DNA of 32,000 nt from NCBI RefSeq assembly GCF_001598795.1, contig NZ_BCZP01000001.1:510001-542000 (forward strand). Direction: 5' to 3'. The position numbers and the translations under genes were made by a program. This document shows positions 11,403-31,837 of this stretch, piece by piece. The stretch is from Delftia acidovorans NBRC 14950 (GTDB taxonomy: Bacteria; Pseudomonadota; Gammaproteobacteria; Burkholderiales; Burkholderiaceae_C). The notes beneath the pieces are model-generated. The model worked only from the letters and a program-made list of their open reading frames with translations. It was not told where the DNA came from and searched no databases. Each line of letters begins with the position of its first letter. The stretch's first letter is position 1.

Positions 11403-13793
11403 ATGTCTCAACTGTTCGAGGCCACCGCCCTCGTCGTTCCGTTTGAACAACTGAGGATGACCGATGTCGAGTCCGTAGGCGGCAAGAACGCCTCGCTCGG
11501 CGAAATGATCTCGCAGCTGCCGCAAGGCGTGCGCGTTCCCACGGGCTTTGCCACCACGGCCCATGCCTTCCGCCAGTTCCTGGCCCACGACGGCCTCGCC
11601 GACAAGATCAGCGCCAAGCTGGCCGCCCTGGACGTGGAAGATGTCCGCGCCCTGGCCCAGGTCGGTGCCGAAATCCGTGCCCTGGTCGAGAACCAGCCCT
11701 TCCCGGCCGATCTGGAGCAGGCCATCCGCGAGGAATTCGTGCGCCTGCAGGGCGGCAACGAGGCGGCCTCGTTCGCCGTGCGCTCCTCGGCCACGGCCGA
11801 AGACCTGCCCGACGCCTCGTTCGCCGGCCAGCAGGAAACCTTCCTGAACGTGGTGGGCATCGAGTCGGTGCTGCACAAGATGAAGGAAGTCTTCGCCTCG
11901 CTGTACAACGACCGCGCCATCTCCTACCGCGTGCACAAGGGCTTTGCCCACGACGTGGTGGCCCTGTCGGCCGGCGTGCAGCGCATGGTGCGTTCCGACC
12001 TGGGCGCGGCCGGCGTGATGTTCACCATCGACACCGAATCGGGCTTCGAGGACGTGGTCTTCATCACCTCCAGCTATGGCCTGGGCGAGACCGTGGTGCA
12101 GGGCGCCGTCAATCCTGACGAGTTCTATGTGCACAAGCCCATGCTCAAGGCCGGCAAGAAGGCCCTGATCCGCCGCAACCTGGGCTCCAAGCTGATCCAG
12201 ATGGTCTTTGCCTCGCCCGAGGAAAAGGCCGCCAGCGGCAAGCTGGTCAAGACCACCGACGTGGCCCATGAGCTGCGCAACCGCTACTCGCTGTCCGATG
12301 AGGACGTGCAGCAGCTGGCCCACTATGCCCTGGTCATCGAGCAGCACTATGGCCGCCCCATGGACATCGAGTGGGGCAAGGACGGCACGGACGGCCAGCT
12401 CTACATCCTGCAGGCCCGCCCCGAGACCGTGAAGAGCCAGGCCAAGGGCCAGGCCGAGCAGCGCTACGCCCTCAAGGGCACGGGCAATGTGCTGGCCGAA
12501 GGCCGCGCCATTGGCCAGAAGATCGGCACGGGCCCCGTGCGCCTGGTCAATGACATCGCCAACATGGACCAGGTCCAGCCCGGCGACGTGCTGGTGACCG
12601 ACATGACCGATCCCAACTGGGAGCCGGTGATGAAGCGTGCCTCGGCCATCGTCACCAACCGTGGCGGCCGTACCTGCCACGCTGCCATCATCGCGCGCGA
12701 ACTGGGCATTCCGGCCGTGGTCGGCTGCGGCAACGCTACCGACCTGCTCAAGGACGGCACCCTGGTCACCGTCAGCTGCGCCGAAGGCGATACCGGCAAG
12801 ATCTACGATGGCCTGATCGAGACCGAGATCACCGAAGTGCAGCGTGGCGAGATGCCCGCCATCAAGACCAAGATCATGATGAACGTGGGCAACCCCCAGC
12901 TGGCCTTCGACTTCGCCCAGCTGCCCAACGAGGGCGTGGGCCTGGCCCGCCTGGAGTTCATCATCAACAACAACATCGGCGTGCACCCCAAGGCCATCCT
13001 GGACTACCCCGCCGTCGATGCCGACCTCAAGAAGGCCGTCGAGTCCGTGGCCCGCGGCCATGCCTCGCCGCGTGCCTTCTATGTGGACAAGGTTGCCGAA
13101 GGCGTGGCCACGATTGCCGCCGCCTTCTGGCCCAAGCCCGTCATCGTGCGCATGTCGGACTTCAAGTCCAACGAGTACCGCAAGCTCATCGGCGGCAGCC
13201 GCTACGAGCCCGAGGAAGAGAACCCCATGCTGGGCTTCCGTGGCGCCGCGCGCTACATCTCCGAGGACTTCGGCGAGGCCTTCCGCATGGAGTGCGAGGC
13301 ACTGCGCCGCGTGCGCGAGGACATGGGCCTGACCAACGTGCAGATCATGATTCCCTTCGTGCGCACGCTCAAGCAGGCCGAGCGCGTCACCCAGCTGCTG
13401 GCGGCCAACGGCCTCAAGCGCGGCGACAACGAGCTCAAGCTCATCATGATGTGCGAGGTGCCCTCCAACGCCATCCTGGCCGATGAGTTCCTCGAGTTCT
13501 TCGACGGCTTCTCCATCGGCTCCAACGACCTGACCCAGCTGACGCTGGGCCTGGACCGCGACTCCGGCCTGGAGCTGCTGGCTGCCGACTTCGACGAGCG
13601 CGACCCGGCCGTGCGCAAGATGCTGTCGCGCGCCATCAAGGCCTGCCTGGACCAGGGCAAGTACGTGGGCATCTGCGGCCAGGGCCCTTCGGACCACCCG
13701 GACTTCGCCCAATGGCTGGCTGACGAAGGCATTGCCTCCATCTCGCTGAATCCCGACAGCGTGGTCGCCACCTGGCAGCGCCTGGCGCAGTAA
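11403..13793 (+). CDS. ppsA: Phosphoenolpyruvate synthase (pyruvate, water dikinase)
   Basis: 796 aa from the ATG at 11403 ([35 protein letters not shown]). Phospho-His region [24 protein letters not shown], and a C-terminal PEP-utilising TIM barrel ([15 protein letters not shown]). Confidence 0.97.
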
Positions 13794-17872: not shown

Positions 17873-18092
17873 GACGCTTCTCCTTGCGCAATGGTGTGGG
17901 TGAGCCGGCGGGTGCGTCCGGGTGGGACGCGCGCCGAGCCAAGTCCCGGGGAACTATAGCTCTGGATCCATTCTGCTACAAGTTTGGTAGCTCAAAACCC
18001 ACAGCGGCAATGCCCCACGCTAGAGGAATACGCGTATGACCAAGCCAGTGTTGCAGGCCCGCCACGTGGCCTGCCCGCTGCGCGGCGGTTTC

Positions 18093-19169
18093 TCAGCTCT
18101 TGAGTTTGAGCAGATAGGTCATCACGCTGGCCGTGGTGTGCTCCAGCTCCAGAAAGCCGTTGAAATCGCGGCCCGCCTGCCAGGAAGGCTCCCAGCGGTT
18201 CTGGCGCAGGGCGCGTTGCCAGCTCTCGTGCTGCGTGGCCTGCTCCACGGCGCCCAGCAGGGCCTGGGCACGTGCGGCGCTGACCTGCTTGCCGGTGAAG
18301 ACGGCGCGCCAGTTGGCCATGTCCGCATCCAGCCCCTGCTCGCGGAACGAGGGCAGGCCGAACAGGCTGCGGCGCGAGGACACGCCGATGGCGCGCAGCT
18401 TGCCGCTGGCCAGCGCCTCGCTGAACTCGCTGTAGCCGGACACGCCCATGCGCGCATCGCCCTTGAGCAAGGCCTCCACCACCTGGGCGCCGCCAGGAAA
18501 GGGCTTGTAGACCAGTTGCTCGGGCGCCGCCTTGGCCGCGCGCGTGAGCAGGCCGGCGAACATGTGGTCCACGCCACCGGCCGAGCCACCCGCAAAAGAC
18601 TGGTGGGCCAGGTCGCTGCGCAGCGCGGCCACCAGGTCCTTGGCATTGCGGATGGGGGAGTCGGCCGGTACGGCCACGACCAGGTAATCGCTGGTCAGGC
18701 GGGCAATCGGCTGCACATGCGACATGTTGACGGCCGGCTTTTGCAGTGCCACCGCACCGACCATCACCATGCCGCCGATCAGCAAGGCGTCGGGGTCCTT
18801 GCCATGGCGCTCGGCAAACTGGGCCAGGCCGATGGTGCCTCCCTTGCCGCCCACGTTTTCATACTCCACGCGCTCGGCCGCGCCGCTGGCCACCAGCGCT
18901 GCGCCCAATGCGCGGCCGGTCTGATCCCAGCCGCCGCCGGCATTGGCCGGAATGACGATGCGCAGGCTGGTCGCCACGCGCTGGGCGCTGCCGGCAGCCC
19001 GTGGCGCATGGGCTGCAGGTGCTGCCGCTGGCGGTGCGGCATGGGCCAGAGGAGAGCACAGCATGGCCAGGGCAGCGCCCTGGGCCAGCATCTGGCGGCG
19101 GTTCTGGCGCGTTCCATCGGCGGTATGGGCGGCGTTGGCGGCGGTTTGCGAAAAGCTCGGAAGGCGCAT
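18093..19169 (-). CDS. Bug-family (TctC-like) tripartite tricarboxylate transporter substrate-binding protein, orphan
   Basis: About 358 aa from the ATG at 19169. RRQMLAQGAALAML signal region. RIVIPANAGGGWDQTGRALG and GGKGGTIGLAQFA are typical Bug motifs. No tctA or tctB nearby. Confidence 0.9.
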   Translation of the reverse strand: MRLPSFSQTAANAAHTADGTRQNRRQMLAQGAALAMLCSPLAHAAPPAAAPAAHAPRAAGSAQRVATSLRIVIPANAGGGWDQTGRALGAALVASGAAERVEYENVGGKGGTIGLAQFAERHGKDPDALLIGGMVMVGAVALQKPAVNMSHVQPIARLTSDYLVVAVPADSPIRNAKDLVAALRSDLAHQSFAGGSAGGVDHMFAGLLTRAAKAAPEQLVYKPFPGGAQVVEALLKGDARMGVSGYSEFSEALASGKLRAIGVSSRRSLFGLPSFREQGLDADMANWRAVFTGKQVSAARAQALLGAVEQATQHESWQRALRQNRWEPSWQAGRDFNGFLELEHTTASVMTYLLKLKS

Positions 19170-19325
19170 GCAGTCTCCAATCGGGTTCGCGCGCCATTGT
19201 GGGCGCAAATGAATCAGAAAAGCAGATTATGTAAGCATGTGCGTCAGCTGCTTGACACAACACAGTACAGCGCAGTCCGGCCCGCGCGGCTCTGTGATCT
19301 CTGGGCCGGTGCGGTCCCTCAGCGC

Positions 19326-21845
19326 TCAGAAGTCGTAACGCATGCTCACGTTGACGCTGCGTGGCGCGCCCCAGGTGTAGTACAGGCCCTGGGCATTGAA
19401 GTTGGTCACGCCCGAGAAATAGTGCTTGTCGAACAGGTTGTTGACGTTGGCCACGATGCTGAGATGGCGGTTGATCTGGTAGCGCGCCATCAGGTCCATC
19501 ACCCAGTAGGCGTCCTGGCGCAGCGTGGCGGCGCCGCGGCTGGTGGAGATGGCGCTTTGCCAGCGCGCGGCGCCGCCCACAGTCAGGCCGGACAGCGCGC
19601 CCTGCGCGAAGCGGTAGGTGGTGCCCAGCTTGAACTGGTGGCGCGGGCTGGTGGCGGCGTTGTCCAGATTGCTGTTGATGGTCACGTAGCTGCCCTGGGC
19701 CTGCCAGCCCTTGGCCAGCTCGCCGGACAGTTCCAGTTCGAAGCCGCGCCTGCGCGCGCCCTGGACCGCGCGGTAGGCCGTGTCGCCATTGGGCATGAGC
19801 CCGTCTTCCACGGCCGTGTTGTCGGTGCGCATCCAGAAATGGGCGACGCTGGCGTTCAACCGCTTGTCGAAGAATTCGCCCTTGGCGCCGATCTCGTAGG
19901 TCAGGCCCTCCTCGGGCGGCAGGGTGCGTTCCTGCAGATCCTTGGCGCTTTGCGCCTTGAAGATGCTGGCGTAGCTGCCATACAGCGAGATGTTCGGGCT
20001 GACGTCATACACCAGGCCCGCATAGGGCGTGACCACGCCGTGCTCGCGCATGTTGTAGTTGTACCAGCTGATGTCGGTCACATCCTTCTGGTCGTAGTTG
20101 GTCACGCGCAGGCCGGCGATCAGCTTCAGCGGATCGGCCAGATTGAGGCGTGCCGCGCTGTAGAGATAGCTGCGCTTGTTGCTGAACAGGTCGTTGGAAT
20201 AGGGGATGTTGTCCGCTGGCGCCGGGATGGCTGCGCCGCCCTGGCTGAAGTCCACCTGCGGCAGGTCCAGGCCGGGGCGCGCGCCGCGCAGCAGCGTGGT
20301 GCGGTTGCGTGCGGCGCCCGCGCCCACCAGCAACTCATGCTGGCGGCCGAACAGCGTGAACGGGCCCTGAACGTCGATGCTGATGTTCTGGTTGCGGGAC
20401 TCGATGTCCTTGTAGGCCGCGAACTGGGCCGAGCTGGGCAGGGCGTAGCGCAGCAGGCCGATCTGCATGTCGGGCGTCTTCACCTCTTCATGCGACATCT
20501 GCAGCTTGGCCTTCCAGCCGCTGGCAAAGCGGTGCTCCAGGCGCGCGAAGCTGTTGAGCGACTCCTGCTCGTAGCCCGACCAGGGCGCGGCGATGTTCAG
20601 CGAGCGCGGCATCCAGCCGACGAACTGGCCGGTGCCCGTGTAGCCCTGGATGGGCGTGGTGCCGCCCGAGCCGCGCAGTTCGCGCTGGCGGTAGGTGATG
20701 CCGGCGCTCAGCAGGGTGTCGGGGGTGAGGTCGTATTCCAGCGTGCCGTACAGCATGGAGCTGTTGCTGTGCTGGTGGTCGCGGAAGCTGTCGCCGCTCT
20801 TGCGCGAGGCCACCAGGCGGCCGCGCAGGCTGCCTTCCTGGTTCAGCGGACCGGCAATGTCGGCATCGGCACGGTAGGTGCCCCAGCTGCCCGCGCTGGC
20901 CATTACGCTGGCCTGGAAGTCGCGCGTGGGGCGCTTGCGGATCAGGTTGACCGTGGCTCCGTAGGCGCCGTCGCCATTGATCAGGCCCGACGAGCCCTTG
21001 AGCACTTCAACGCGGTCGATCTCGGCCAGATCGTCCAGCGAGTACATGATGTGCGTGTTCCAGCCCCAGCCATTGGTGAGCTGGCGGCTGCCATCGGTCT
21101 GCAGGTTGACGCTGGAGCCGCGCACGTTGAAGGTGGTCATCTCGCTTTGGCGGACCACGGCCACGCCGGGCGTCTGCTCCAGCACGTCGGTCAGCGTCTC
21201 CAGCTTGAAGTCATCCATGCGCTGGCGCGTCATCACGCTCACCGACTGCGGCGTCTCGCGCAGCGACAGGCCCAGGCCCGTGGCCGTGCTGCTGGGTCCG
21301 GTCGCGGTGTAGGCGCCCGTGCCTTCCGTGGCGCTGCCGACCTCGGCCTTGGCGGTGACGTGCACCTCGCCCAGCGTGGTGGCGCCTACGGCTGATGCGG
21401 CAGGCGCTGTCGAGGACGCAGGCGATGCCTGCGAGCGGCGCAGCGTATAGCCGCCGTTGCCCGAGGTCGCGGCCGCTAGGCCCGAGCCCGCCAGCAGGCG
21501 GGTCAGCGCCTCGGCCGGCGCATGGCTGCCCTGCAGGCCCGGGCTTTGCAGATCGCGCACCAGCTCGGGCGTATAGGCCAGCAGAACGCCCGAGGCCTTG
21601 GCGAAGCGCGTGAGCGCGGCCTCCAGCGGTCCTGCCGGAATGTCGTAGGCCTGGGCGCGCTCGGTACTACCTGTCTGGGCCTGGGCCTGGGCATTCGCGG
21701 GCAAGGGCAGGGCGGACAGGCTGGCCAGTGCGGCGGCCAGGGCCAGGGTCAATGCGGACAGGTGGAACACGGGCGCAGGTTGCGCGGGGCGGAGGACGCG
21801 TGCCGCCGCGGTAGCGAGGCGGCGCTGGTGATGGAGGTCGGACAT
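19326..21845 (-). CDS. TonB-dependent siderophore receptor / transducer with N-terminal STN signalling domain (FecA/FpvA type)
   Basis: 839 aa. Signal peptide, STN domain (QAYDIPAGPLEAALTRFAKASGVLLAYTPELV...ALTRLLAGSGL), plug and barrel, terminal RYDF. Immediately downstream of fecI-fecR-like genes. Confidence 0.92.
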   Translation of the reverse strand: MSDLHHQRRLATAAARVLRPAQPAPVFHLSALTLALAAALASLSALPLPANAQAQAQTGSTERAQAYDIPAGPLEAALTRFAKASGVLLAYTPELVRDLQSPGLQGSHAPAEALTRLLAGSGLAAATSGNGGYTLRRSQASPASSTAPAASAVGATTLGEVHVTAKAEVGSATEGTGAYTATGPSSTATGLGLSLRETPQSVSVMTRQRMDDFKLETLTDVLEQTPGVAVVRQSEMTTFNVRGSSVNLQTDGSRQLTNGWGWNTHIMYSLDDLAEIDRVEVLKGSSGLINGDGAYGATVNLIRKRPTRDFQASVMASAGSWGTYRADADIAGPLNQEGSLRGRLVASRKSGDSFRDHQHSNSSMLYGTLEYDLTPDTLLSAGITYRQRELRGSGGTTPIQGYTGTGQFVGWMPRSLNIAAPWSGYEQESLNSFARLEHRFASGWKAKLQMSHEEVKTPDMQIGLLRYALPSSAQFAAYKDIESRNQNISIDVQGPFTLFGRQHELLVGAGAARNRTTLLRGARPGLDLPQVDFSQGGAAIPAPADNIPYSNDLFSNKRSYLYSAARLNLADPLKLIAGLRVTNYDQKDVTDISWYNYNMREHGVVTPYAGLVYDVSPNISLYGSYASIFKAQSAKDLQERTLPPEEGLTYEIGAKGEFFDKRLNASVAHFWMRTDNTAVEDGLMPNGDTAYRAVQGARRRGFELELSGELAKGWQAQGSYVTINSNLDNAATSPRHQFKLGTTYRFAQGALSGLTVGGAARWQSAISTSRGAATLRQDAYWVMDLMARYQINRHLSIVANVNNLFDKHYFSGVTNFNAQGLYYTWGAPRSVNVSMRYDF

Positions 21846-21971
21846 GTTGGTGCGGTCTTTGGATCAGGGAGGAAACATGGCGCCGCAAAGCGCCTCTCCC
21901 CTGCTTGTCACGCGAGATGAGAAAAGGTACAGACCGATGTCACCGGGCCGGGTTGTCCCGCCGCCTTCTCT

Positions 21972-23015
21972 TCACGCCGGACCTATGCGCACCCAGTAGC
22001 GCACCGGCACATGGATGCGCACGGGCAGCACCTGTACCAGGGACTGCAGGATGCGATCCGTATCGGCGAGCGGGAAGACGCCTGACAGGCGCAACCCGGC
22101 CACCTCGGGTGCCAGCGTGATCAGCCCGGGTCGGTAGCGGCGCAGTTCGTCGATGAAGCGGTCCAGGCGCATGTCCGAGGCCACGAGCACGCCTTCGTCC
22201 CAGCCCGGCCCCTCGCCGGCCGCGCCGGCCGGCAGGGCCTGCGTGGCACTGAGCCTTGCGGCTTCGCCGCTGTCGACACGCAGCAACTCGCCCGTGCGGC
22301 TGCGGGCCTCGACCGCACCCTCGAAAACGGCCACGCGCGTATCCGCAGTCTCCATGTCATGGCGCACCGTGAAACGCTTGCCCAGGGCGCGCAGCCTGCC
22401 CGCGGGCGTGTCCACCACAAAGGGGCGCGCGGGCTGGGCCGTGTCATGGGCGGTGGCGACCATCAGCTCGCCGCGCAACAGCAGCACGCGGCGCAGCTGG
22501 TCGTCGAAGGCAAGGTCCACGGACGTCTCGGTGTTGAGCAGCAGCTGCGTGCCATCGGGCAACTGCAGGGAGCGCCGCTCGCCCTTGGCGGTGCTGACAT
22601 CGGCATTCCAGGCCTGCCAGGGCAGGCGCTCATGCGCAGTCCATGCCGCAGCACCTGCGCCGGCCAGGCCAGCGACGCTGGCCAGCAGGCGGCGGCGTGA
22701 CTGGGCGGTCTTGAGGCTGCGCGCCAGCGTGGCCGTGGCAAGGGGTCCATTGAGGGGACCGCTGTCCGGGCGTGCGTCAGGCAACCTGAGCCGCGCATTC
22801 GTGGCCTCGATGCGCTGCCAGGCCCGCTCATGCAGCGGATGGGCCGCGCGCCAGTCCAGCCATTGCGCGCGTTGTTCCGCTGTGCACTCGCCTGACCACA
22901 GCTGCACCAGCCAGTCCACGGCGCTGTGGACCACGTCAGGCGGCAGCGCGGGGTCGGCACTATGGGTGGAGCCATCGGCGCCATGGACGCGCCCGGCAGC
23001 GCAGCGCTGTGTCAT
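21972..23015 (-). CDS. fecR: FecR-family anti-sigma factor / transmembrane sensor
   Basis: About 347 aa from the ATG at 23015. N-terminal AVDWLVQLWSG...QWLDWRAAHPLHERAW, one TM (LLASVAGLAGAGAAAW), periplasmic FecR domain. The start overlaps the fecI stop (ATGA). Confidence 0.9.
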   Translation of the reverse strand: MTQRCAAGRVHGADGSTHSADPALPPDVVHSAVDWLVQLWSGECTAEQRAQWLDWRAAHPLHERAWQRIEATNARLRLPDARPDSGPLNGPLATATLARSLKTAQSRRRLLASVAGLAGAGAAAWTAHERLPWQAWNADVSTAKGERRSLQLPDGTQLLLNTETSVDLAFDDQLRRVLLLRGELMVATAHDTAQPARPFVVDTPAGRLRALGKRFTVRHDMETADTRVAVFEGAVEARSRTGELLRVDSGEAARLSATQALPAGAAGEGPGWDEGVLVASDMRLDRFIDELRRYRPGLITLAPEVAGLRLSGVFPLADTDRILQSLVQVLPVRIHVPVRYWVRIGPA

Positions 23016-23527
23016 GCCGCATGTTCCGGGAAGTAGCAATGCCGGATGGCGCGCGCCATGTACTGCTTGACCGAGCTGACCGAGACCTGCAGCAGCAACG
23101 CGATCTCGGCATAGGCCATGCCGTCCAGCTGGGCGTGCAAAAAGGCCGCGCGCACCTTGGGCGGCAGGCCGTCGAGCAGGCGGTCCAGCTCGCACAGCGT
23201 CTCCAGCACGATGGCGCGTTCCTCGGGCGAGGGCGCCAGCGGCTCGGGCTGCAGCGCCAGCGTGTCCAGATAGGCACGTTCAATTTCTCGGCGGCGCAGG
23301 TGGTTGGCCATCACGCGCTTGGCCACCGTGGTGAGGAAGGCGCGGGGCTCCCGGATCTCGGACAGTTCGGTGCGGGACTCCATCACGCGCACGTAGGTGT
23401 CCTGTGCGAAATCTGCCGCATCGCCTGCATGGCCCAGCCGGCGCTGCAGCCAGGTGCGCAGCCAGCCATGGTGCTGCTGGTAGAGATGGGCAAGGGCCTG
23501 GTGGGGAGTCACGGCGGGACAGGACAC
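23012..23527 (-). CDS. fecI: ECF sigma factor, FecI (iron-starvation) type
   Basis: 171 aa with region 2 (DAADFAQDTYVRVM) and region 4 (LPPKVRAAFLHAQLDGMAYAEIALLLQVSVSSVKQYMARA). The start is GTG at 23527; an alternative GTG lies at 23512. Confidence 0.9.
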   Translation of the reverse strand: MSCPAVTPHQALAHLYQQHHGWLRTWLQRRLGHAGDAADFAQDTYVRVMESRTELSEIREPRAFLTTVAKRVMANHLRRREIERAYLDTLALQPEPLAPSPEERAIVLETLCELDRLLDGLPPKVRAAFLHAQLDGMAYAEIALLLQVSVSSVKQYMARAIRHCYFPEHAA

Positions 23528-23546
23528 GAAGGGTAAAGAGAGAGAT

Positions 23547-23571
23547 GCAAGTGATAAGCATTCTTATTTTA
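23547..23571 (-). promoter_or_regulatory. Candidate Fur box overlapping a TAAAAT -10 element of the fecI promoter
   Basis: GCAAGTGATAAGCATTCTT (23547-23565) matches the Fur consensus at 13/19 by hand count. It contains the perfect dyad ATAAG-catt-CTTAT. The minus-strand TAAAAT lies at 23566-23571. Confidence 0.5.
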
Positions 23572-23632
23572 CTTTGGGTGATGCTGGCACCGCCTTGGCG
23601 TGGCGCACGATTAAGCCGGTAAAGCTTGTGTA

Positions 23633-23666
23633 AATGCGATCAATTCTTATTTGTGGGCGGTAGAAT
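23633..23666 (+). promoter_or_regulatory. Second Fur-like site plus TAGAAT -10 element, upstream of the PepSY-TM gene
   Basis: AATGCGATCAATTCTTATTT is a poor full-length consensus match (9/19) but repeats the 10-mer ATTCTTATTT of the first box (23560-23569 and 23643-23652). TAGAAT at 23661-23666. Confidence 0.35.
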
Positions 23667-23751
23667 CCCCGGGCCTTTCCTTTCCTGGGCTCCCGTGCCC
23701 GCCATCCGTGATGGTTGACGCCGCGTGGCGCTGCCGCCTTTTTCTGTTGCG

Positions 23752-24390
23752 ATGACATCCCCCAAACCGGACCCTCGGCGCCGTTCCTACTGGCTCAAGA
23801 CACTGCACGAGTGGCACTGGGTCAGCTCCGCGCTGTGCCTGATCGGCATGCTGCTGTTCGCCGTCACGGGGTTCACGCTCAACCATGCGGGGCAGATCGA
23901 GTCCAAGCCGCGCATCGTGCGTGGCGAGGCGGCATTGCCCGATGCGCTGCGCGTGCAGTTGGTCCAGCAGCAGGCCAGCCAGCCGCGCGACCGGGCGCCC
24001 GTGCCTGCGCCGTTTGCGGACTGGGTGCGCGGCCAGTGGGGCCTTGAGGCCGAGGGCCGCGAGGCCGAATGGACGGCCGACGAACTCTATGTCTCCCTGC
24101 CACGCCCCGGCGGCGATGCCTGGGTGCGCGTTGCCCTGGCCGATGGCGAGGCCGAATACGAGCGCACCGACCGGGGCTGGATCGCCTATCTGAACGACCT
24201 GCACAAGGGTCGCAACACGGGCGCCGCCTGGAGCTGGTTCATCGACATCTTTGCCGCAGCCTGCCTGGTGTTCACCGTCACGGGCCTGTTCATCCTGAAG
24301 ATGCATGCAGGCAATCGCCCCTTCACCTGGCCCATGGTCGGCATGGGGCTGGTGATTCCCATGCTGCTGGCCCTCCTGTTGATCCACTGA
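23752..24390 (+). CDS. PepSY-associated TM-helix membrane protein (short, about 212 aa)
   Basis: RRRSYWLKTLHEWHWVSSALCLIGMLLFAVTGFTLNH (PepSY_TM helix signature), then a roughly 110-aa hydrophilic domain, then YLNDLHKGRNTGAAWSWFIDIFAAACLVFTVTGLFIL and a third TM helix. Confidence 0.85.
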   Translation: MTSPKPDPRRRSYWLKTLHEWHWVSSALCLIGMLLFAVTGFTLNHAGQIESKPRIVRGEAALPDALRVQLVQQQASQPRDRAPVPAPFADWVRGQWGLEAEGREAEWTADELYVSLPRPGGDAWVRVALADGEAEYERTDRGWIAYLNDLHKGRNTGAAWSWFIDIFAAACLVFTVTGLFILKMHAGNRPFTWPMVGMGLVIPMLLALLLIH

Positions 24391-24410
24391 GAACCGAAAG
24401 AGCCTTGCCA

Positions 24411-24938
24411 ATGAATCCGCACTTCTCTCTGCGCTACACCATGGCGCTTGGCGCCTGCCTGGGCGCGGTCCCGGTCTTTGCCGCCGGCCTGAACGTGGGC
24501 GTGGAAATTCCGCGCCTGGATGTCGCCGAATACCACCGCCCCTACGTGGCCGTGTGGATCGAGCGCGCCGACGCCTCGGTTGCCTCCACGCTGTCGGTCT
24601 GGTACGACGTGAAGATGCGCAATGCCGAAGGCACGAAGTGGCTCAAGGACATGCGCCAGTGGTGGCGCCGCACGGGCCGTGACCTGACGTTGCCGATCGA
24701 TGGCGTGACCAGCCCCACGCGTCCCGTGGGCAAGCACCAGCTGAGTTTCACCGAAGGCGCCAATCCCTTCGCCAAGCTGCCGCCCGGTGAATACAAGCTC
24801 GTGGTCGAGGCCGCGCGCGAAGTCGGCGGCCGCGAAGTGGTTACCGTGCCCTTCAAGTGGCCCGCGGCCAAGGCCGAGCAACTGAGCGCCAAGGGCAGCA
24901 GCGAGCTGGGCGAGATCAGCGTCGAGCTCAAGCCTTGA
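24411..24938 (+). CDS. Periplasmic DUF2271 protein (candidate ApbE substrate)
   Basis: 175 aa. Signal peptide ...GAVPVFA-AG. EYHRPYVAVWIE, KWLKDMRQWWRRTGRD, IDGVTSPTRPVG and PGEYKLVVEAAREVGGRE fit the DUF2271 pattern as I recall it. Confidence 0.8.
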   Translation: MNPHFSLRYTMALGACLGAVPVFAAGLNVGVEIPRLDVAEYHRPYVAVWIERADASVASTLSVWYDVKMRNAEGTKWLKDMRQWWRRTGRDLTLPIDGVTSPTRPVGKHQLSFTEGANPFAKLPPGEYKLVVEAAREVGGREVVTVPFKWPAAKAEQLSAKGSSELGEISVELKP

Positions 24939-25115
24939 AATTGAAAGCCGCCGAGGCGCTGTGCGCCTTCCCCCTCACGAGGGGGACGACGCCATCGCTG
25001 CGGGGCGGCCAGGCCCTTGCTCGGCATCCCTGAGCTGAGCCCTGCATGTTGGTGGGCCACGCATCTTGCGGGGGATCCACGTGCCAGACCCATCCACGAA
25101 CCAAGGAGATTTTTC

Positions 25116-25934
25116 ATGAAGTCCAAGACCCGCTTTGCCGTCCGTCTGGCTGCCAGCCTCGCCATTGCCTGCGGCGCCTTCCAGGCCGCCCAGGCCCACA
25201 ACCTGTGGCTGCTGCCCTCGACCACGGTGCTGTCCAAGGCCGAATGGATCACGGTGGATGCCGCTGTCTCCAACGACCTGTTCTTCTTCAACCACGTGCC
25301 GCTGGGCCTGGACAACCTCGTTGTCTCGGCGCCGGACGGCTCGGCCGTCGCGCCGCAGAATGCCCATCGCGGCAAGCTGCGCAGCGTGTTCGACCTGGAC
25401 CTGCAGCAAAGCGGCACCTACCGCCTGGCCATCGTCAACGACGGCCTGTTTGCCTCTTGGAAGGACAAGGCCACGGGCCAGAACCGCCGCTGGCGCGGCT
25501 CGCCCGAGAAGTTCGCCGCCGATGTGCCCGCCGACGCGCAGGACCTGAAGGTGACCCAGTCCGTGGGCCGCATCGAGACCTTCGTGACCGTGGGCAAGCC
25601 CAGCGCCGTCAAGCCTTCCGGCAAGGGGCTGGAGCTGGTGCCCGTGACCCATCCCAACGACCTGGTCAAGGGCGAGAAGGCCACCTTCGCCTTCCATGTG
25701 GACGGCAAGCCCGCCGCCAACCTGGAAGTCGTGCTGGTGCCCGGCGCCACGCGCTACCGCGACAACAAGGGCGAGATCAAGGCCACGACCGACGCCAAGG
25801 GCGAGTTCAGCGTGACCTGGCCCACCGCCGGCATGTACTGGGTGGATGCCGACGCGCAGGACAGCAAGACATCGCTGCCCCAGGCCAAGGAGCGCCGCCT
25901 GTCCTACGTGGGCACGTTCGAGGTGCTGCCCTGA
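25116..25934 (+). CDS. Periplasmic DUF4198 protein
   Basis: 272 aa. AAGGAG RBS at 25103-25108. Signal peptide ...FQAAQA-HNLWLLP, so the mature N-terminus is His. GLELVPVTHPNDLVKGEKATFAFHVDGKPAANLEV and TTDAKGEFSVTWPTAGMYWV are typical DUF4198 strands. Confidence 0.85.
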   Translation: MKSKTRFAVRLAASLAIACGAFQAAQAHNLWLLPSTTVLSKAEWITVDAAVSNDLFFFNHVPLGLDNLVVSAPDGSAVAPQNAHRGKLRSVFDLDLQQSGTYRLAIVNDGLFASWKDKATGQNRRWRGSPEKFAADVPADAQDLKVTQSVGRIETFVTVGKPSAVKPSGKGLELVPVTHPNDLVKGEKATFAFHVDGKPAANLEVVLVPGATRYRDNKGEIKATTDAKGEFSVTWPTAGMYWVDADAQDSKTSLPQAKERRLSYVGTFEVLP

Positions 25935-25975
25935 GCCTTGCGTCCCCACCCGGGGCTCCGTCTGCGCCCGCGCCC

Positions 25976-27052
25976 GTGCGCGTGAGCTTCGCGCCCGCCC
26001 TATTGCAGGGCAGCGCAGGCCGGGGCCTTGCCGCGCCTGTGTCCACAGGCGCGGCGTCCTTTGCCGTCTCCGGCTACGCGCCGCAGGCCGTGCGGCGGGC
26101 AGACCCCGCCGCGCTGCAAACACTCACCGGCGAGTCCATGGGCACGAGCTGGAGCGTGCGCCTGCACAACCCGGATTTCCGCCCGCTCGATGAGGCGCGC
26201 CAGGCCATAGAGGCTGCGCTGGCCCTGGTCGTGCGCCAGATGAGCAACTGGGAAGCTGGCTCCGACATCTCGCGCTTCAACCGCGCCGAGCCCGGCAGCT
26301 GGCATGCACTGCCACCCGAATTCTTCACCGTGCTGACCTGTGCACTCGATTGGGCACAGGCCAGCGGCGGCGCCTGGGACCCTACCGTGGGGCCGCTGGT
26401 TGATCTGTGGGGCTTCGGCCCGCGTGCGGAAAAGTCGCAGGGCGCCGGCATCCCCGATGCCGACGCGCTGCGGCGGGTGCGCGAGCGCGTGGGCTACCAG
26501 CGCATCGTGCTGGACCTGGCAGGCCGGCGCGCGCTGCAGCCCGGCGCCGTCCATGTGGACTTCAGCGGCATCGCCAAAGGCTATTCGGTGGACCTGGTCG
26601 CCGAGCGCCTGCAGGCGCTGGGCCATACCGATTTCCTCGTCGAGGTGGGCGGCGAGCTGCGGGCCTGTGGTCAGCGCCCTGGCAACCAGCCCTGGCGCGT
26701 GGCCGTGGCCAGCATGGCGGACCAGTCCACGCCGCTGGCGCTGCCGCTGCGCGACATGGCCATCGCCACCTCGGGCGACCACTGGCATGCCTTCGAGCAA
26801 GGCGGGCGCCGCTACTCCCACACCATCGATCCGCGCAGCGGCGAGCCCGTGGCGCATGGCCTGACCAGCGTCACCGTGCTGCATGCCGAATGCATGCAGG
26901 CCGACGCCCTGGCCACCGTGCTCACCGTGCTGGGGCCGCGCGAGGGCCTGGACTTTGCCGAGCAGCGCGGCGTGGCGGCGCTGCTGTGCGAGCGCACTGC
27001 CCAAGGCCCTGCCATGGCGATGACAACGGCTTTTGCCGCGCTGCTGCCGTGA
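25976..27052 (+). CDS. apbE: FAD:protein FMN transferase (ApbE family); start codon uncertain
   Basis: MGTSWSV, WDPTVGPLVDLWGFGP, FSGIAKGYSVD, IATSGDHWH, HTIDPRSGEP and QADALATVL motifs. There is no in-frame ATG between the DUF4198 stop and MGT, so a GTG at 25976 (or 25982) is assumed. Confidence 0.85.
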   Translation: MRVSFAPALLQGSAGRGLAAPVSTGAASFAVSGYAPQAVRRADPAALQTLTGESMGTSWSVRLHNPDFRPLDEARQAIEAALALVVRQMSNWEAGSDISRFNRAEPGSWHALPPEFFTVLTCALDWAQASGGAWDPTVGPLVDLWGFGPRAEKSQGAGIPDADALRRVRERVGYQRIVLDLAGRRALQPGAVHVDFSGIAKGYSVDLVAERLQALGHTDFLVEVGGELRACGQRPGNQPWRVAVASMADQSTPLALPLRDMAIATSGDHWHAFEQGGRRYSHTIDPRSGEPVAHGLTSVTVLHAECMQADALATVLTVLGPREGLDFAEQRGVAALLCERTAQGPAMAMTTAFAALLP

Positions 27053-27097
27053 GCGTTTCCTTCCCTTTTTCCGCCGTGTAGATTTCCGGTCCTCGCC

Positions 27098-28483
27098 ATG
27101 ACCTTGTCCGAAACCGGGCTGCGCGTACTCGCAGCCGCCGTGCTGGTCCTGCTCTATGCGGCCATGTGCGCCGCCATCTGGTGGCGTGAGCGCCGCCAGC
27201 GCATGCGGACCCTGCAGGAAGCGGCTGCGCTGACCAGCGCACGCGAGGGCGCGCTGCCCCTGCTCGTGGCCTATGCCAGCCAGACCGGCCAGGCCGAGGA
27301 GCTGGCGCGCGAGACCGCCCGGCTGCTGCACACGGCCGGAGAAAGCGTGCACCTGTGCGCCCTGGACGCTGTGGATGCCGACCTGCTGGCGCGCACGCAA
27401 AGGGCGCTGTTCATCGCCAGCACCTATGGCGAGGGCGATCCGCCCGACAACGCGGCGCTGTTCCTGGCGCACGCCATGGCCGATGCACGGCCGCTGTCCC
27501 ATCTGCAATACGGTCTGCTGGCGCTGGGCGACCGGCAGTACGCGCAGTTCTGCGGCTTTGGCCGCGCGCTGGACAGCTGGCTGCGTGCCGGTGGCGCCAG
27601 GCCCTGGTTCGAGCGCATTGAAATGGACAACGGCGCGCCGCAGGTGCTGACTGCCTGGCAGCACCAGCTGACCCAGATCAGCAGCCTGGGCGACATGCCG
27701 GCATGGGAGCAGCCGGTCTTCAGCGAATGGACGCTGGCCGCGCGCCGGCACATGAACCCGGGCAGCGCAGGCGAGCCGGTGTTCCACATCGAGCTGCAGC
27801 CCCCTGCAACGGAGCCCGCGCTGTGGGAGTCCGGCGACCTGGCGCAGGTCTGCATTCCTGCGGACCCGCAGCATCCGCGCGAGTACTCCATCGCCTCCAT
27901 TGCCCAGGATGGCTGCGTGCACCTGCTGGTGCGCCAGGCGCGGCGCGAGGATGGCTCGCCGGGCCTGGCCTCGGGCTGGCTCACGCAGGGCGCGCCCCTG
28001 GGTGCAGCCATCACCCTGCGGCTGCGTGCGCACCGCAATTTCCGGCTGGAAGACAACCTGCAGCGCCCGCTGGTGCTGATCGGCAACGGCACGGGCCTGG
28101 CCGGCCTGCGCAGCCACCTGCGCGCGCGTGCTGCGGCGGGCCTGGGTCCCAACTGGCTGCTGTTCGGCGAGCGCAATGCGGCGCACGACCGGCTGTACGG
28201 CGACGAGCTTCAGGCATGGTGCGATGGCGGCGTGCTGCAGCGCCTGGACCTGGCCTTCTCGCGCGACCGCAGCGAAGGCGCGCCGCGCGCCTATGTGCAG
28301 GACCTGCTGGCGCAGTCCGGCGATGTCTTGCGCCAATGGGTGGCGCAGGGCGCAGCCATCTACGTGTGCGGCAGCCTGCAGGGCATGGCCCAGGGCGTGG
28401 ACCAGGCGCTGCACGCCGTGTTGGGCAAGGCGCAGATGGACCAGCTGGTGCGCAGCGGTCGATACCGGCGCGATGTGTACTGA
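27098..28483 (+). CDS. Membrane-anchored diflavin reductase (CysJ / sulfite-reductase flavoprotein-like: TM helix + flavodoxin-like + FAD + NAD(P)H domains)
   Basis: 461 aa. N-terminal TM LRVLAAAVLVLLYAAMCAAIWW, flavodoxin-like LLVAYASQTGQAEELA...FIASTYGEGDPPDNA, FAD motif REYSIAS, NAD(P)H motif VLIGNGTGLAGLRS, IYVCGS...MAQGV, and a C-terminal GRYRRDVY. Confidence 0.9.
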   Translation: MTLSETGLRVLAAAVLVLLYAAMCAAIWWRERRQRMRTLQEAAALTSAREGALPLLVAYASQTGQAEELARETARLLHTAGESVHLCALDAVDADLLARTQRALFIASTYGEGDPPDNAALFLAHAMADARPLSHLQYGLLALGDRQYAQFCGFGRALDSWLRAGGARPWFERIEMDNGAPQVLTAWQHQLTQISSLGDMPAWEQPVFSEWTLAARRHMNPGSAGEPVFHIELQPPATEPALWESGDLAQVCIPADPQHPREYSIASIAQDGCVHLLVRQARREDGSPGLASGWLTQGAPLGAAITLRLRAHRNFRLEDNLQRPLVLIGNGTGLAGLRSHLRARAAAGLGPNWLLFGERNAAHDRLYGDELQAWCDGGVLQRLDLAFSRDRSEGAPRAYVQDLLAQSGDVLRQWVAQGAAIYVCGSLQGMAQGVDQALHAVLGKAQMDQLVRSGRYRRDVY

Positions 28484-28568
28484 ACGCCGCTTGCGCGAGC
28501 GCAAAGATGGGCCGGTTTGCTCCTAGGAACGTAGCATCGGCACGACAGATAAATCCTATTGTGCTCGT

Positions 28569-28601
28569 GAGAATGGAAATGATTCTCAATGTTCATATAA
28601 T
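28569..28601 (+). promoter_or_regulatory. Fur box plus perfect TATAAT -10 element upstream of the CirA-like receptor
   Basis: GAGAATGGAAATGATTCTC (28569-28587) matches the Fur consensus at 14/19 by hand count, with the perfect arms GAGAAT/ATTCTC. TATAAT at 28596-28601. Confidence 0.6.
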
Positions 28602-28694
28602 TTCGTTACATATCCCCATCCCATCGCATAACCAAACATTTCAAAGCGAGTTTCACGGGCCCCACAGCCCGTTTTCCGTTTCTGGAGTGTTTGC

Positions 28695-30872
28695 ATGTCG
28701 TATCGCGATCCGCGCGGAGTTCTTCCGTCGCGTCCTTCCCATCTGGCCCTTGTGGTGGCTGCCGTCTGCGCTTCGGGTGCCGTCTCTGCTCAGACGGCAA
28801 CAGGCAATGCCGCGCCCGCCACGGAGCTGCGCGAAGTCGTGGTCTCCGCCTCGGGTTTCGAGCAGGACATCAAGGAGGCGCCGGCCTCCATCACCGTCAT
28901 CCCGCGTGAGGAACTGGCCAAGGGCCGCTTCGGCAGCCTGACCGACGCGCTGGAAAGCGTGGAAGGCATCGACGTGGGCGCCCCCGCAGGCAAGACCGGC
29001 GGCCTGAACATCAGCATCCGCGGCATGCCCAGCGACTACACGCTGGTACTCATCGACGGCCGCCGCCAGAACTCGGCCGGCAACGTCACGCCCAACGGCT
29101 TTGGCGAGACGCAGACCAGCTTCATGCCGCCCATCGGCGCCATCGAGCGCATCGAGGTCATCCGCGGCCCCATGTCCACGCTCTACGGCTCCGACGCCAT
29201 GGGCGGCGTGATCAACATCATCACCCGCAAGGTCGGCAAGACCTGGACGGGCAGCGTCAGCGCCGACTACACGCTGCAGGAAGAGTCGGAGTTCGGCGAC
29301 ATCAAATCCGGCAAGTTCTACCTGAGCGGCCCCATCAAGCAGGACATGCTGGGCCTGTCGATCCGCGGCAGCACGCAGCGCCGGGCCGCTTCGGACATCA
29401 CCTATGCGGGCGCCAACGGCCAGCCAGCCGTTCCCCTCATGGGCGGCAACCCCGTCAAGTCCGAGATCAACAACCTGGGCCTGCGCCTGGCGCTCACGCC
29501 CAACAGATACCACGACATCACGCTGGACCTGGACTCGGGCCGCCAGACCTATGACAACTCGCAGGGCCAGTTGGGTACGCTGGGCACGGGGGGCTACAGC
29601 CCCGAGCAGAAATACAACCGTGACCAGCTCACGCTGGCCCATACCGGTCGCTACGGCTTCGGAACCTGGGACACCAGCTTCATGGTCAACCGGACCGAGA
29701 CCATCGGCCGGACCATTCCCCGGGGAACCCCGGGCGCGACGCCAGGTGCCGCGCGCACGCTGGAGGTGGAAAGCAAGGTGCTGGACAGCAAGCTGGTCCT
29801 GCCCTGGGGTGCCCACCTGACCACGCTGGGCGGCCAGTGGTGGGATGCCGAGATGAAGGACGGCGTGGCGCCGAACAAGTTCGCCTTCACGCAGAAGGCC
29901 CTGTTTGCCGAGGACGAATGGAGCCTGACCGACGCCTTCAAGCTCACCATGGGCGCGCGCTATGACCGCCACAGCCTCTTCGGCGGCAAGCTCAGCCCGC
30001 GCATCTACGGCGTGTGGAATGCCGCGCCGCAGTGGACCGTGAAGGGCGGCATCAGCAACGGCTACAAGACGCCGCGCGTGGAGCAGCTGGCGCCCGGCAT
30101 CAACGGCTTCGGCCAGCAGGGCCGCCTGCCGCTGGTGGGCAGCCCCAACCTCAAGCCCGAAACCAGCCGCACCACTGAACTGGGCGTCTATTTCGACAGC
30201 CCCACGGGCTTTGCGGGCAGCGCCACGGTGTTCAACAACGAGTTCAAGGACAAGATCACCAGCGGCCCGGGCCTGATCAACTGCGACTTTGCGGCAGCGC
30301 CCAACCGCCCCGGCTGCGTGAGCTTCGGCGACTGGCCGCTGGTGGATGCCTTCGGCCAGTCCATCAACGTGGACGAGGCCGTCACGCGCGGCCTGGAGCT
30401 GAGCGCGCGCATGCCGCTGGCGCGCGGCTGGAATGCCAGCGCCAACTACACCTTCACCAGGAGCGAGCAAAAGAGCGGCCCCAACCGGGGCAACCCGCTG
30501 AGCGACACGCCCAAGCATGCGCTCAACGCCCGCCTGAACTGGGAGCCGGGTGCCCAGTGGAACCTGTGGCTGCGTGCCGAATACCGCAGCGAACGCTTCC
30601 GCGACCCCGGCACCAGCGCCAGCTCCCAGGCCGCCAAGGCCGCGCTGGGCAACTACAAGGCCTATACCCAGTTCCACCTGGGCGGCAGCTACCGCGTGAG
30701 CAAGCAGTTCACCATCAACGCGGCCATCTACAACCTGTTCAACAAGGATTTCGTGGACTACCAGCCCTACAACGTACCGGGCCAGGTCCAGGGTACCGTG
30801 ATCTTTGGCAACCGCTACGCGAACAACCAGGAAGGCCGCCGCCTGTGGGTGTCCGCCAACTACGAGTTCTGA
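28695..30872 (+). CDS. TonB-dependent receptor, CirA/IrgA-like (catecholate-type siderophore receptor family)
   Basis: 725 aa. Signal peptide ...GAVSA-QTA, TonB-box-like ELREVVVSAS, plug DIKEAPASITVIPREEL...LNISIRGMPSDYTLVLIDGRRQNS...IERIEVIRGPMSTLYGSDAMGGVINIITRK resembling CirA, terminal NYEF. Confidence 0.9.
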   Translation: MSYRDPRGVLPSRPSHLALVVAAVCASGAVSAQTATGNAAPATELREVVVSASGFEQDIKEAPASITVIPREELAKGRFGSLTDALESVEGIDVGAPAGKTGGLNISIRGMPSDYTLVLIDGRRQNSAGNVTPNGFGETQTSFMPPIGAIERIEVIRGPMSTLYGSDAMGGVINIITRKVGKTWTGSVSADYTLQEESEFGDIKSGKFYLSGPIKQDMLGLSIRGSTQRRAASDITYAGANGQPAVPLMGGNPVKSEINNLGLRLALTPNRYHDITLDLDSGRQTYDNSQGQLGTLGTGGYSPEQKYNRDQLTLAHTGRYGFGTWDTSFMVNRTETIGRTIPRGTPGATPGAARTLEVESKVLDSKLVLPWGAHLTTLGGQWWDAEMKDGVAPNKFAFTQKALFAEDEWSLTDAFKLTMGARYDRHSLFGGKLSPRIYGVWNAAPQWTVKGGISNGYKTPRVEQLAPGINGFGQQGRLPLVGSPNLKPETSRTTELGVYFDSPTGFAGSATVFNNEFKDKITSGPGLINCDFAAAPNRPGCVSFGDWPLVDAFGQSINVDEAVTRGLELSARMPLARGWNASANYTFTRSEQKSGPNRGNPLSDTPKHALNARLNWEPGAQWNLWLRAEYRSERFRDPGTSASSQAAKAALGNYKAYTQFHLGGSYRVSKQFTINAAIYNLFNKDFVDYQPYNVPGQVQGTVIFGNRYANNQEGRRLWVSANYEF

Positions 30873-31837
30873 GGCGGGTTCCGGGGCGCCTGGCTGGCCT
30901 GCACGCGTGACGGGGCCAGCCTGACCAGCACCTGCAGCGTGCGGTTCAGCGGCACGGGCACGCCCAGGGCCTCGCCGCGCCGCACCACGTAGCCGTTCAG
31001 GTGGTCGATTTCGCTGGGCTTGCCCAGCGCCAGATCCTGGGCGGTGGACGAGAACTGGCCCGGCATGGTGGCCGGCAGGCCCCGCACGGCAGCGGGCACG
31101 TCGCCGGGCAGGGCTACGCCGTCGGCCCTGGCCACGGCCAGGCATTCGGCCACCACGTCATCCACCACGTCCGTCACGCCGGGCGACTGCACCAGTGGGC
31201 CGTAGGGCAGCTGGCAGAGCGCCGACAGCGCGTTGTAGGCGCAGTTGATCACCAGCTTGGCCCACAGCGCGCCGCGCACATCGGGCGATACCTGCACGGC
31301 AATGCCCGCCGCGCCAAATTGCAGGGCCACCTGTTCGCTGAGTGCAGAGGGCGCGATGACCAGCTCGCCACGCCCGAAGTGGCGCACATGGCCGGGACCG
31401 GCCATGGCCGTGGCCACATAGACCACGGCGGCCGCCACGGCAACGGACGGGCCCAGCACGGCGCGCACGCGCTCGTCGTTGTCCACGCCGTTTTGCATGG
31501 TCAGCACCAGGGCGCCCGGCGCCAGGTGCGGCTGCATCTCGCGGGCCGCTTCCTCGGTGGCCGTGGACTTGACGCAGAACATCACCACATCGGCATCGCG
31601 CACGGCGCTGGCCTCGGTCGATGCCTGCATGGGCACCTGGATGTCCAGCGCCGCCGTCTCCAGCCGCAGGCCATGCTGCTGCACGGCCTGCACATGGGCG
31701 GGACGGCCAATCAGCGTGACCTGGTGGCCGGCGCGTGCCAGCAGTGCGCCGAAATAGCAGCCCACGGCGCCTGCACCCATGACGGCGATGCGCAGCGGCG
31801 CGGTGGGGGAGGAGGGGCTGGCGGAAGAAGCGTCCAT
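30860..31837 (-). CDS. 2-dehydropantoate 2-reductase family (PanE/ApbA-like) oxidoreductase
   Basis: About 325 aa from the ATG at 31837. Rossmann motif LRIAVMGAGAVGCYFGALLARAGHQVTLIGR, then GAGHV...NGVDN-type middle region and SSTAQDLALGKPSEIDHLNGYVVRRGE (the ketopantoate reductase C-terminal signature). Confidence 0.85.
   Translation of the reverse strand: MDASSASPSSPTAPLRIAVMGAGAVGCYFGALLARAGHQVTLIGRPAHVQAVQQHGLRLETAALDIQVPMQASTEASAVRDADVVMFCVKSTATEEAAREMQPHLAPGALVLTMQNGVDNDERVRAVLGPSVAVAAAVVYVATAMAGPGHVRHFGRGELVIAPSALSEQVALQFGAAGIAVQVSPDVRGALWAKLVINCAYNALSALCQLPYGPLVQSPGVTDVVDDVVAECLAVARADGVALPGDVPAAVRGLPATMPGQFSSTAQDLALGKPSEIDHLNGYVVRRGEALGVPVPLNRTLQVLVRLAPSRVQASQAPRNPPQNS

Follow-up and report, generated by a model that had tools for sequence, protein, structure and literature searches.

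Five forward-strand genes between positions 23725 and 28483 of a 32,000-nucleotide stretch of Delftia acidovorans NBRC 14950 DNA (the window, whose numbering is used throughout) are likely orthologous to the Caulobacter operon CC3059-CC3063, a ferric-reductase operon of the PepSY-like, flavinylation-associated type that is regulated by Fur. The cluster is real, has a Fur-like box and is conserved as a unit. As established from open reading frame (ORF) translations and Pfam matches, its genes encode, in this order, a PepSY-like membrane protein, a DUF2271 protein, a DUF4198 protein, an ApbE-family flavin transferase and a membrane-tethered diflavin reductase, and they are separated by gaps of 20, 177, 41 and 45 nt (Table 1). 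An initial annotation, made by a model from the DNA letters and their ORFs, had proposed these families and gaps and had read the set as a conduit of flavins and heme that carries electrons from NAD(P)H (reduced nicotinamide adenine dinucleotide, with or without phosphate) to the periplasm for iron acquisition. The gene set was confirmed, the motifs quoted for it (LHEWHW, LNDLHKG, REYSIAS, GNGTGLAG and the RRDVY terminus) are all present in the translations, and the proposed conduit matches the published model of PepSY-like systems (PMC8238504) and agrees with the domains, topology, motifs, Fur-like boxes and conservation described below. The domain models for DUF2271, DUF4198, ApbE, Flavodoxin_1 and NAD_binding_1 bore out the family calls, and PepSY_TM (PF03929) did so with a partial match (E 1.2e-9); only FAD_binding_1 (PF00667), searched for in the reductase at E up to 0.01, gave no match. 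The assignment to D. acidovorans is supported by strain MMO-42, which the DUF2271 gene and 20 kb around it match at 95-99% identity.

Operons of this type have been described by comparative genomics. Meheust et al. (2021, eLife) reported 3220 "PepSY-like" flavinylation clusters with a PF03929 or PF16357 protein, of which 2833 contain DUF2271, 1500 a secreted DUF4198, 1077 an NAD-binding domain and 231 a TonB-related gene, and proposed that these systems transfer electrons across the membrane for iron reduction (PMC8238504). In that survey, a cluster was defined by at least one predicted signal peptide on an ApbE, FMN-binding, DUF3570 or DUF2271 gene (PMC8238504). In the Delftia cluster, the PF16357 gene adjoins the DUF2271 and ApbE genes, and signal-type h-regions are present in DUF2271 and in the secreted DUF4198. 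The closest experimental counterpart is the operon of Caulobacter crescentus, in which all five families stand on one strand in the Delftia order (CC3059-CC3063, or CCNA_03155-03159), and which resembles the Delftia operon also in the Fur-like box at its promoter and the iron receptors close by. Expression of CC3059-63 rises 12- to 51-fold when iron is low and when fur is mutated, and Fur sites overlapping the -35 and -10 elements have been validated (PMC3751524). Moreover, transposon insertions in these genes reduce fitness in ethylenediaminetetraacetic acid (EDTA) (PMC12004947). The Vibrio cholerae protein VciB, which like the first protein of the Delftia operon is a PepSY-like inner-membrane protein of COG3295, is reported to promote ferric reduction for ferrous-iron uptake (PMC8238504, PMC12004947). 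Meheust et al. name no other characterised PepSY-like homologue, and VciB, unlike the protein discussed here, has no associated flavinylation genes (PMC8238504). In homologues, then, regulation by iron and Fur, a fitness defect in EDTA, flavinylation of DUF2271, promotion of ferric reduction by VciB and metal binding by DUF4198 have been demonstrated. The initial annotation had considered the gene set biochemically undissected. This holds for the electron path and the substrate but not for DUF2271 flavinylation, the Fur and iron regulation in Caulobacter or the fitness in EDTA, all of which are published, and the Delftia copy adds nothing fundamentally new to the comparative-genomic picture.

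Conservation of the neighbourhood was examined by scanning one genome per species with a DUF2271 alignment and comparing the best 80 of 589 confirmed loci, a sample biased to close DUF2271 relatives (at least 55% identity). All five genes occur in the same order and on the same strand in 66 of these 80 loci, so that the cluster is kept as a unit, the point on which the initial annotation could have failed. Nine loci are too short to judge and six are without one gene: by tblastn at E<1e-8, ApbE was not found at its usual place in a Cellvibrionaceae and an Oryzomicrobium locus, and the reductase was not found in two Phenylobacterium loci, one Rhodospirillaceae locus and one unclassified locus. 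The loci span beta-, gamma- and alphaproteobacteria, their sources including Comamonadaceae, Variovorax, Achromobacter, Bordetella, Cupriavidus, Herminiimonas, Luteibacter, Lysobacter, Niveispirillum and Hyphomicrobium, and 38 of the 80 have a TonB-dependent receptor no more than 9 kb away.

Fur-like sites were scored in two ways, against the 19-position E. coli consensus and with a weight matrix derived from 50 orthologous PepSY-gene promoters; the matrix is partly circular because the E. coli consensus served to choose its sites in the first place. In the whole 32 kb, just two places agree with the consensus at 13 or more of the 19 positions (23547-23571 and 28569-28593), and four reach 15-24 bits with the matrix (these two, 4943-4967 and 23630-23654), the rest of the window staying below 10 bits. 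The sites are well above chance. Boxes of this kind are also enriched upstream of the orthologous PepSY genes, where the best site agrees at 12 or more positions in 53 of 78 regions, compared with 31 of 390 control regions. The candidate operator of the operon is the box at 23630-23654, which is situated in the promoter region common to both D. acidovorans strains, directly upstream of the TAGAAT hexamer. Since this box matches the E. coli consensus at only 10 of 19 positions, that consensus as the sole criterion undervalues it, and the orthologue-derived matrix was needed; use of the consensus by itself was given up. The initial annotation had placed a Fur-like site and TAGAAT ahead of the operon. 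This is right for the box that adjoins TAGAAT, but the box at 23547, from which the annotated cluster was made to start, belongs to fecI: it lies approximately 20 nt from the fecI start codon and is assigned to that gene because it falls inside a segment that holds fecIRA and is absent from strain MMO-42. TAGAAT itself has no convincing -35 partner, the promoter scan made no call there, and the promoter is weak by consensus.

Electrons would enter the chain through the reductase. Its N-terminal helix is followed by the strongly basic stretch WWRERRQRMR, which indicates that the catalytic part is cytoplasmic. The best matches in the PDB are CysJ/CPR structures, and the cysJ model (TIGR01931) is matched with E 1e-67, at 229 bits against a cut-off of 668. 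Like CysJ/CPR, the protein has a flavodoxin-like flavin mononucleotide (FMN) domain and an FNR-like domain for flavin adenine dinucleotide (FAD) and NADPH, together with RxYS, GxGxxP-type and Ser-Arg motifs and a C-terminal aromatic residue. In 69 orthologues, the QTG loop, STxGEGDxPD, RxYSIAS, GNGxGxAG, S388-R389 and the terminal Tyr are each conserved in at least 95% of the sequences. S388-R389 is what we take to be the Ser-Arg pair that binds the 2'-phosphate of NADPH in CysJ/CPR/FNR enzymes, and this pair makes NADPH the likely electron donor. Unlike CysJ/CPR, the reductase has an N-terminal membrane anchor; moreover, only approx. 75 residues (181-255) separate the flavodoxin and FNR modules, which, together with the missing FAD_binding_1 match, suggests that the CysJ/CPR connecting domain is absent. 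The earlier description of a cytoplasmic, CysJ-like FAD/FMN reductase held by a single transmembrane (TM) helix is in agreement with the anchor helix, the cofactor motifs and the CysJ/CPR relatives. The reductase is here a separate, one-helix-anchored protein and not part of a PepSY-NAD-binding fusion such as PepSY-like systems can contain.

The PepSY-like protein is the presumptive membrane step. Its gene starts at ATG 23752 in the public annotation (212 aa), with GTG 23725 as an alternative. The AlphaFold2 model (predicted local distance difference test, pLDDT, 82; predicted template modelling score, pTM, 0.57) comprises three helices and one periplasmic alpha/beta domain. Across 79 sequences, four His residues are conserved to at least 95% (H22, H151, H185 and H212 in the 212-aa numbering); in the model, H22 and H185 are placed at the cytoplasmic ends of TM1 and TM2, and H151 and the C-terminal H212 on the periplasmic side. 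H45, on the periplasmic face, is invariant among close relatives. This is probably the pattern to be expected for two bis-His b hemes, one at each membrane face. In Alteromonas, proteins in which PF16357 is fused to a C-terminal DUF2271 have been reported, and such fusions fit a periplasmic C-terminus of the PepSY-like protein that faces DUF2271. FoxB-type PepSY_TM proteins contain two bis-His hemes and reduce ferric siderophores, their electron donor being unknown. Like FoxB, FpvG, HiuB and FsrB, the Delftia protein has a periplasmic PepSY-type domain, conserved His pairs at both membrane faces and adjoining genes for TonB-dependent receptors; unlike FoxB, which has four helices and two periplasmic domains, it has three helices and one domain, and its operon encodes an NADPH reductase and a presumed flavinylated partner of its own. 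The three helices and the flanking His residues named in the initial annotation were found. With FoxB, which it had cited as a PepSY-TM protein, neither sequence or profile comparison nor Foldseek (solved structure 7ABW) revealed similarity. A similar logic, in which electrons pass from NAD(P)H through flavin and two membrane hemes to an extracytoplasmic metal, is followed by Fre/NOX/STEAP and MsrQ-like ferric reductases; these belong to unrelated families and have no covalently flavinylated periplasmic carrier.

In the periplasm, DUF2271 is the presumed substrate of ApbE. It has a Sec-type signal with a 16-residue h-region according to the h-region heuristic, and no twin-arginine motif that would indicate a Tat signal; with the h-region of DUF4198, this substantiates the proposed Sec export of both proteins. 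D97, G98 and T103 are conserved residues, and the putative flavinylation site (24699-24719, residues 97-103) reads D-G-V-T-S-P-T. Compared with D-x-x-[S/T]-G-A-[S/T], the site retains the Asp, the first Thr and the acceptor Thr103 but has Ser for Gly and Pro for Ala. Pro in place of Ala occurs in 94 of 120 close homologues and approx. 15 of 75 wider loci, and it dominates in Comamonadaceae. The DUF2271 protein of Amantichitinum ursilacus receives its flavin from the cognate ApbE, on the Thr of [S/T]GA[S/T] (PMC8238504). By analogy, FMN would be attached covalently to Thr103 of the Delftia protein.

DUF4198, which the initial annotation had listed as a protein of unknown function, belongs to a family of periplasmic metal binders. 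Zcp of Neisseria gonorrhoeae, characterised in 2025, is a periplasmic Zn-binding dimer (PMC12663993), and IsDUF4198 of Ideonella sakaiensis binds Ni via its mature N-terminal His and a second His (PMC12537917). The Delftia protein shares with Zcp (9MHI) and IsDUF4198 (9GCB) the Pfam family and the periplasmic location. Its predicted cleavage context, AQA/H with the cut before His, makes His28 the mature N-terminus, as in IsDUF4198. Unlike these two proteins, which are Zur-controlled or stand in a nickel context, it has its gene in an iron operon with a Fur-like box, and it keeps Asp48, Asp54 and His60; together with His28, these residues are present in at least 95% of 81 sequences. Similarity to Zcp (PDB 9MHI/9MHK) is distant (E 0.002). 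By analogy, it would be a Sec-exported periplasmic metal-binding protein, with iron suggested as its metal by the context.

From these elements we infer, for this operon, the order of the carriers, heme binding, the place of flavinylation, the substrate and the role of DUF4198 as follows. The one-helix-tethered reductase would take electrons from cytoplasmic NADPH and pass them through FAD and FMN to the three-helix PepSY_TM_like_2 protein, which would move them across the inner membrane, probably via the two bis-His b hemes. Periplasmic DUF2271, carrying the FMN attached by ApbE at Thr103, would accept them, and ferric iron, free or chelated, that had been imported by the neighbouring TonB-dependent receptors would be reduced. 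The metal ion set free might then be bound by DUF4198, at a site centred on the mature N-terminal His of this protein, and be passed on to an Fe(II) importer encoded elsewhere.

Several observations weigh against this reading. Because the 80 loci are those that match DUF2271 best, they overstate the universality of the arrangement. With three helices rather than the four of FoxB and no similarity to it, the PepSY-like protein is a putative heme protein on the strength of its His pattern. The DUF2271 site is T-S-P-T and not the [S/T]-G-A-[S/T] of other PepSY-like systems; altering the Gly and Ala positions of a different ApbE substrate cut flavinylation by half (PMC12052999). The characterised DUF4198 proteins bind Zn or Ni and not Fe, and the cluster contains no Fe(II) importer. 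Finally, no signal peptide can be recognised on the Delftia ApbE, nor on that of most orthologous clusters; this does not agree with a simple periplasmic flavinylation and sets the Delftia operon apart from the published PepSY-like systems.

As regards ApbE, independent gene calls agree on a protein of 358 aa. Its closest solved structures are 5MGY (2.8e-66) and 6NXI (5.5e-53), which align from query residue 44-47, and S266, H282 and D310 are conserved with a spacing identical to that of the catalytic S241, H257 and D285 of the V. cholerae enzyme; the equivalence of the two triads is suggested by this spacing, not by a residue-level alignment. The region that aligns with the solved mature ApbEs is preceded by a 43-residue N-terminal extension (25976-26104), in which sequence inspection and the h-region heuristic detected no hydrophobic core, twin arginine or lipobox, and residues 1-37 of which are modelled as disordered by AlphaFold2 (pLDDT <50). 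The extension is conserved in type: in Comamonadaceae it begins MRV[HRS][YF][GA]P, and in many other orthologues it contains xRVL[IV]P. Most beta- and alphaproteobacterial orthologues likewise combine such an extension with the loss of an export signal. The initial annotation had taken ApbE to be present and to act outside the cytoplasm; its presence is borne out by the fold and the catalytic residues, and the sequence, having no signal peptide, does not support an extracytoplasmic location.

Two ways out within the conduit may be considered, namely that DUF2271 is flavinylated as an unfolded precursor in the cytoplasm before translocation or that the extension mediates a non-classical export of ApbE, and we regard it as unlikely that either applies. 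A second periplasmic ApbE encoded elsewhere in the genome, like non-classical export, is conceivable. More broadly, the conduit might be real and its ApbE cytoplasmic, either modifying the DUF2271 precursor or serving another role or substrate, in which case DUF2271 would be modified by a different, periplasmic ApbE; to this explanation we give a slim chance. It draws on the extension described above and on the orthologues, since 50 to 64 of 75 ApbEs are alike in this respect. A lenient form of the h-region heuristic was positive for 78 of 80 DUF2271 proteins, 80 of 80 DUF4198 proteins and 68 of 69 reductase anchors but only for 25 of 75 ApbEs, which include marginal 8-residue stretches such as that of Delftia. 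In Cupriavidus, Herminiimonas, Niveispirillum and Moraxellaceae, a stop codon less than 45 codons before the conserved MGT core closes the ApbE frame, so that no choice of start codon can provide a signal peptide. Cytosolic ApbEs exist, and a 7-residue unstructured tag is sufficient as a flavinylation substrate (PMC12052999), which makes action on the DUF2271 precursor in the cytoplasm conceivable. Against this, a classical signal or lipoprotein peptide is found on ApbE in 11 or 12 of the 75 orthologous clusters, all gammaproteobacterial (Luteibacter, Lysobacter, Dokdonella, Rhodanobacteraceae), which points to a periplasmic job; no Sec export of a flavinylated chain is known; and a cytosolic Salmonella ApbE did not complement (PMC12052999). 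A cytoplasmic flavinylation target within the cluster was considered as well and rejected, as inspection by eye of the reductase and of the cytoplasmic parts of the PepSY-like protein found no conserved site of the D-x-x-[S/T]-x-x-[S/T] type. It was likewise considered whether read-through from DUF4198 could lend ApbE a signal peptide; this was rejected because ApbE is in the frame of the DUF4198 stop in approx. 14 of 73 loci, below the one in three given by chance. The non-canonical ApbE step is the only route to something new in this operon: cytoplasmic pre-export flavinylation or non-classical export of ApbE, if true, would add a new maturation route for periplasmic flavoproteins.

The same architecture might serve another metal, in the reduction of Cu(II) or in the capture and delivery of Ni or Zn, with DUF4198 as the metal-specific element and the redox chain working for that metal. 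The Zn- and Ni-binding relatives of DUF4198 speak for this, as does the PepSY_TM protein CrpH, which has been linked to copper (PMC13038864). We nevertheless judge it quite unlikely, given that the boxes at this and most orthologous promoters are of the Fur and not the Zur or NikR type, that the neighbours are iron receptors and a probable heme-uptake cluster, that the Caulobacter orthologue responds to iron and Fur (PMC3751524), and that the Delftia DUF4198 is only remotely related to Zcp and conserves its Asp, Asp and His in addition to the N-terminal His. Highly unlikely is a transporter of iron or siderophores in which the membrane protein, DUF2271 and DUF4198 form a permease and the reductase and ApbE are accessory: although a putative transporter was the first annotation given to the Caulobacter genes (PMC3751524) and Alteromonas PepSY-TM proteins beside iron receptors have been read as siderophore permeases, three modelled helices with a 100-residue periplasmic domain would not suffice for a permease, conservation among the membrane residues is highest for the four His at the membrane faces, 66 of 80 loci have the NADPH diflavin reductase and the flavin transferase as obligatory partners, and VciB and FoxB-type relatives act as reductases.

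The reading as a ferric-reductase conduit bears on periplasmic reductive iron release, a step of bacterial iron acquisition that is widespread yet has been dissected poorly. Operons of this type encode a complete candidate chain from NADPH to the periplasm and are therefore a good system for reconstitution. The Delftia copy sharpens two questions: whether the T-S-P-T site is flavinylated, and how an ApbE that has no signal peptide serves a Sec-exported substrate.

Table 1. Features of the PepSY-like operon and its surroundings (positions in the window; protein topology in residues)
Feature	Position	Strand	Basis
STN+Plug+barrel TonB-dependent receptor	19326..21845	-	Pfam
fecR	21972..23015	-	Pfam
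fecI	23012..23527	-	Pfam
Fur-like box, fecI side of the divergent intergenic region	23547..23571	.	13/19; 24.2 bits
Candidate Fur operator of the five-gene operon	23630..23654	+	21.1 and 18.4 bits, window ranks 3 and 6
TAGAAT, candidate -10 hexamer	23661..23666	+	read from sequence
PepSY_TM_like_2 protein, VciB-type, COG3295	23752..24390	+	PF16357 E 8.6e-83
PepSY-like protein, predicted topology	TM1 8-46; periplasmic domain 54-152; TM2 158-186; TM3 192-211		AlphaFold2
DUF2271 protein	24411..24938	+	PF10029 E 1.2e-51
174-bp insertion, most of the 177-nt DUF2271-DUF4198 gap	24939..25112	.	MMO-42 without insertion, spacer 32 bp
DUF4198 protein	25116..25934	+	PF10670 E 1e-57
ApbE-family FAD:protein FMN transferase	25976..27052	+	PF02424 E 1e-83
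Membrane-tethered flavodoxin-FNR reductase	27098..28483	+	Flavodoxin_1 E 4e-25, NAD_binding_1 E 6e-8
Fur-like box overlapping promoter-like site of downstream receptor gene	28569..28601	+	14/19; 20.5 bits
Catecholate-type (CirA/CfrA-like) TonB-dependent receptor	28695..30872	+	Plug and barrel domains

The operon is flanked, as the initial annotation had claimed and Pfam and NCBIfam matches corroborated, by a fecIRA-type module and a Fur-boxed, CirA-like receptor gene. The best NCBIfam matches of the downstream receptor are PRK13483, CfrA and CirA, each below its cut-off, and a promoter-like TGGAAA-16-TATAAT (28574-28601) stands in front of its gene. The gene adjoins the operon in strain MMO-42 as well, and the receptor is a possible supplier of the ferric substrate. 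The fecI-fecR-receptor module, in contrast, is a strain-specific neighbour outside the conserved operon. In MMO-42, approx. 130 unrelated bases take the place of positions 19266-23607, 4.3 kb that comprise the whole fecIRA module and the box at 23547-23571; judged by this comparison, the segment is an insertion of the present strain relative to MMO-42. Iron-uptake modules such as fecIRA come and go between strains, and the operon promoter with its Fur-like box is kept.

A second, smaller insertion distinguishes the operon from MMO-42 and from the published PepSY-like systems. The 174-bp element between the DUF2271 and DUF4198 genes has four copies, 75-84% similar, in an Acidovorax locus (9849-9896, 10503-10598, 11525-11561 and 14283-14330 of that locus), one of them in the same spacer, and it looks like a small intergenic repeat element. 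A structured RNA or a terminator was rejected as its identity, the fold z-score being -0.5 and the terminator scan empty. The same scan found no terminator-like site inside the operon, and an Rfam scan of the whole 32-kb window revealed no known RNA element. Immediately 3' of the reductase stop codon lies a GC-rich inverted repeat, CTTGCGC-GA-GCGCAAAG (28486-28505), which has no T run and for which the terminator scan gave no call.

Very long ORFs of 830-1119 aa run antisense to annotated genes at 18036-21395 (+), 26000-28504 (-; 834 aa) and 28653-31145 (-); they were rejected as genes and are most likely by-products of the approx. 68% G+C content. Elsewhere in the window, a gene for an AhpF-like disulphide reductase is present at 3137-4693. 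The Fur-like box at 4943-4967 (24.4 bits) precedes a further TonB-dependent receptor gene (5085-7373), which is followed by a gene for a HemS/ChuX heme-degrading protein (7808-8932), and the two genes probably form a heme-uptake cluster.

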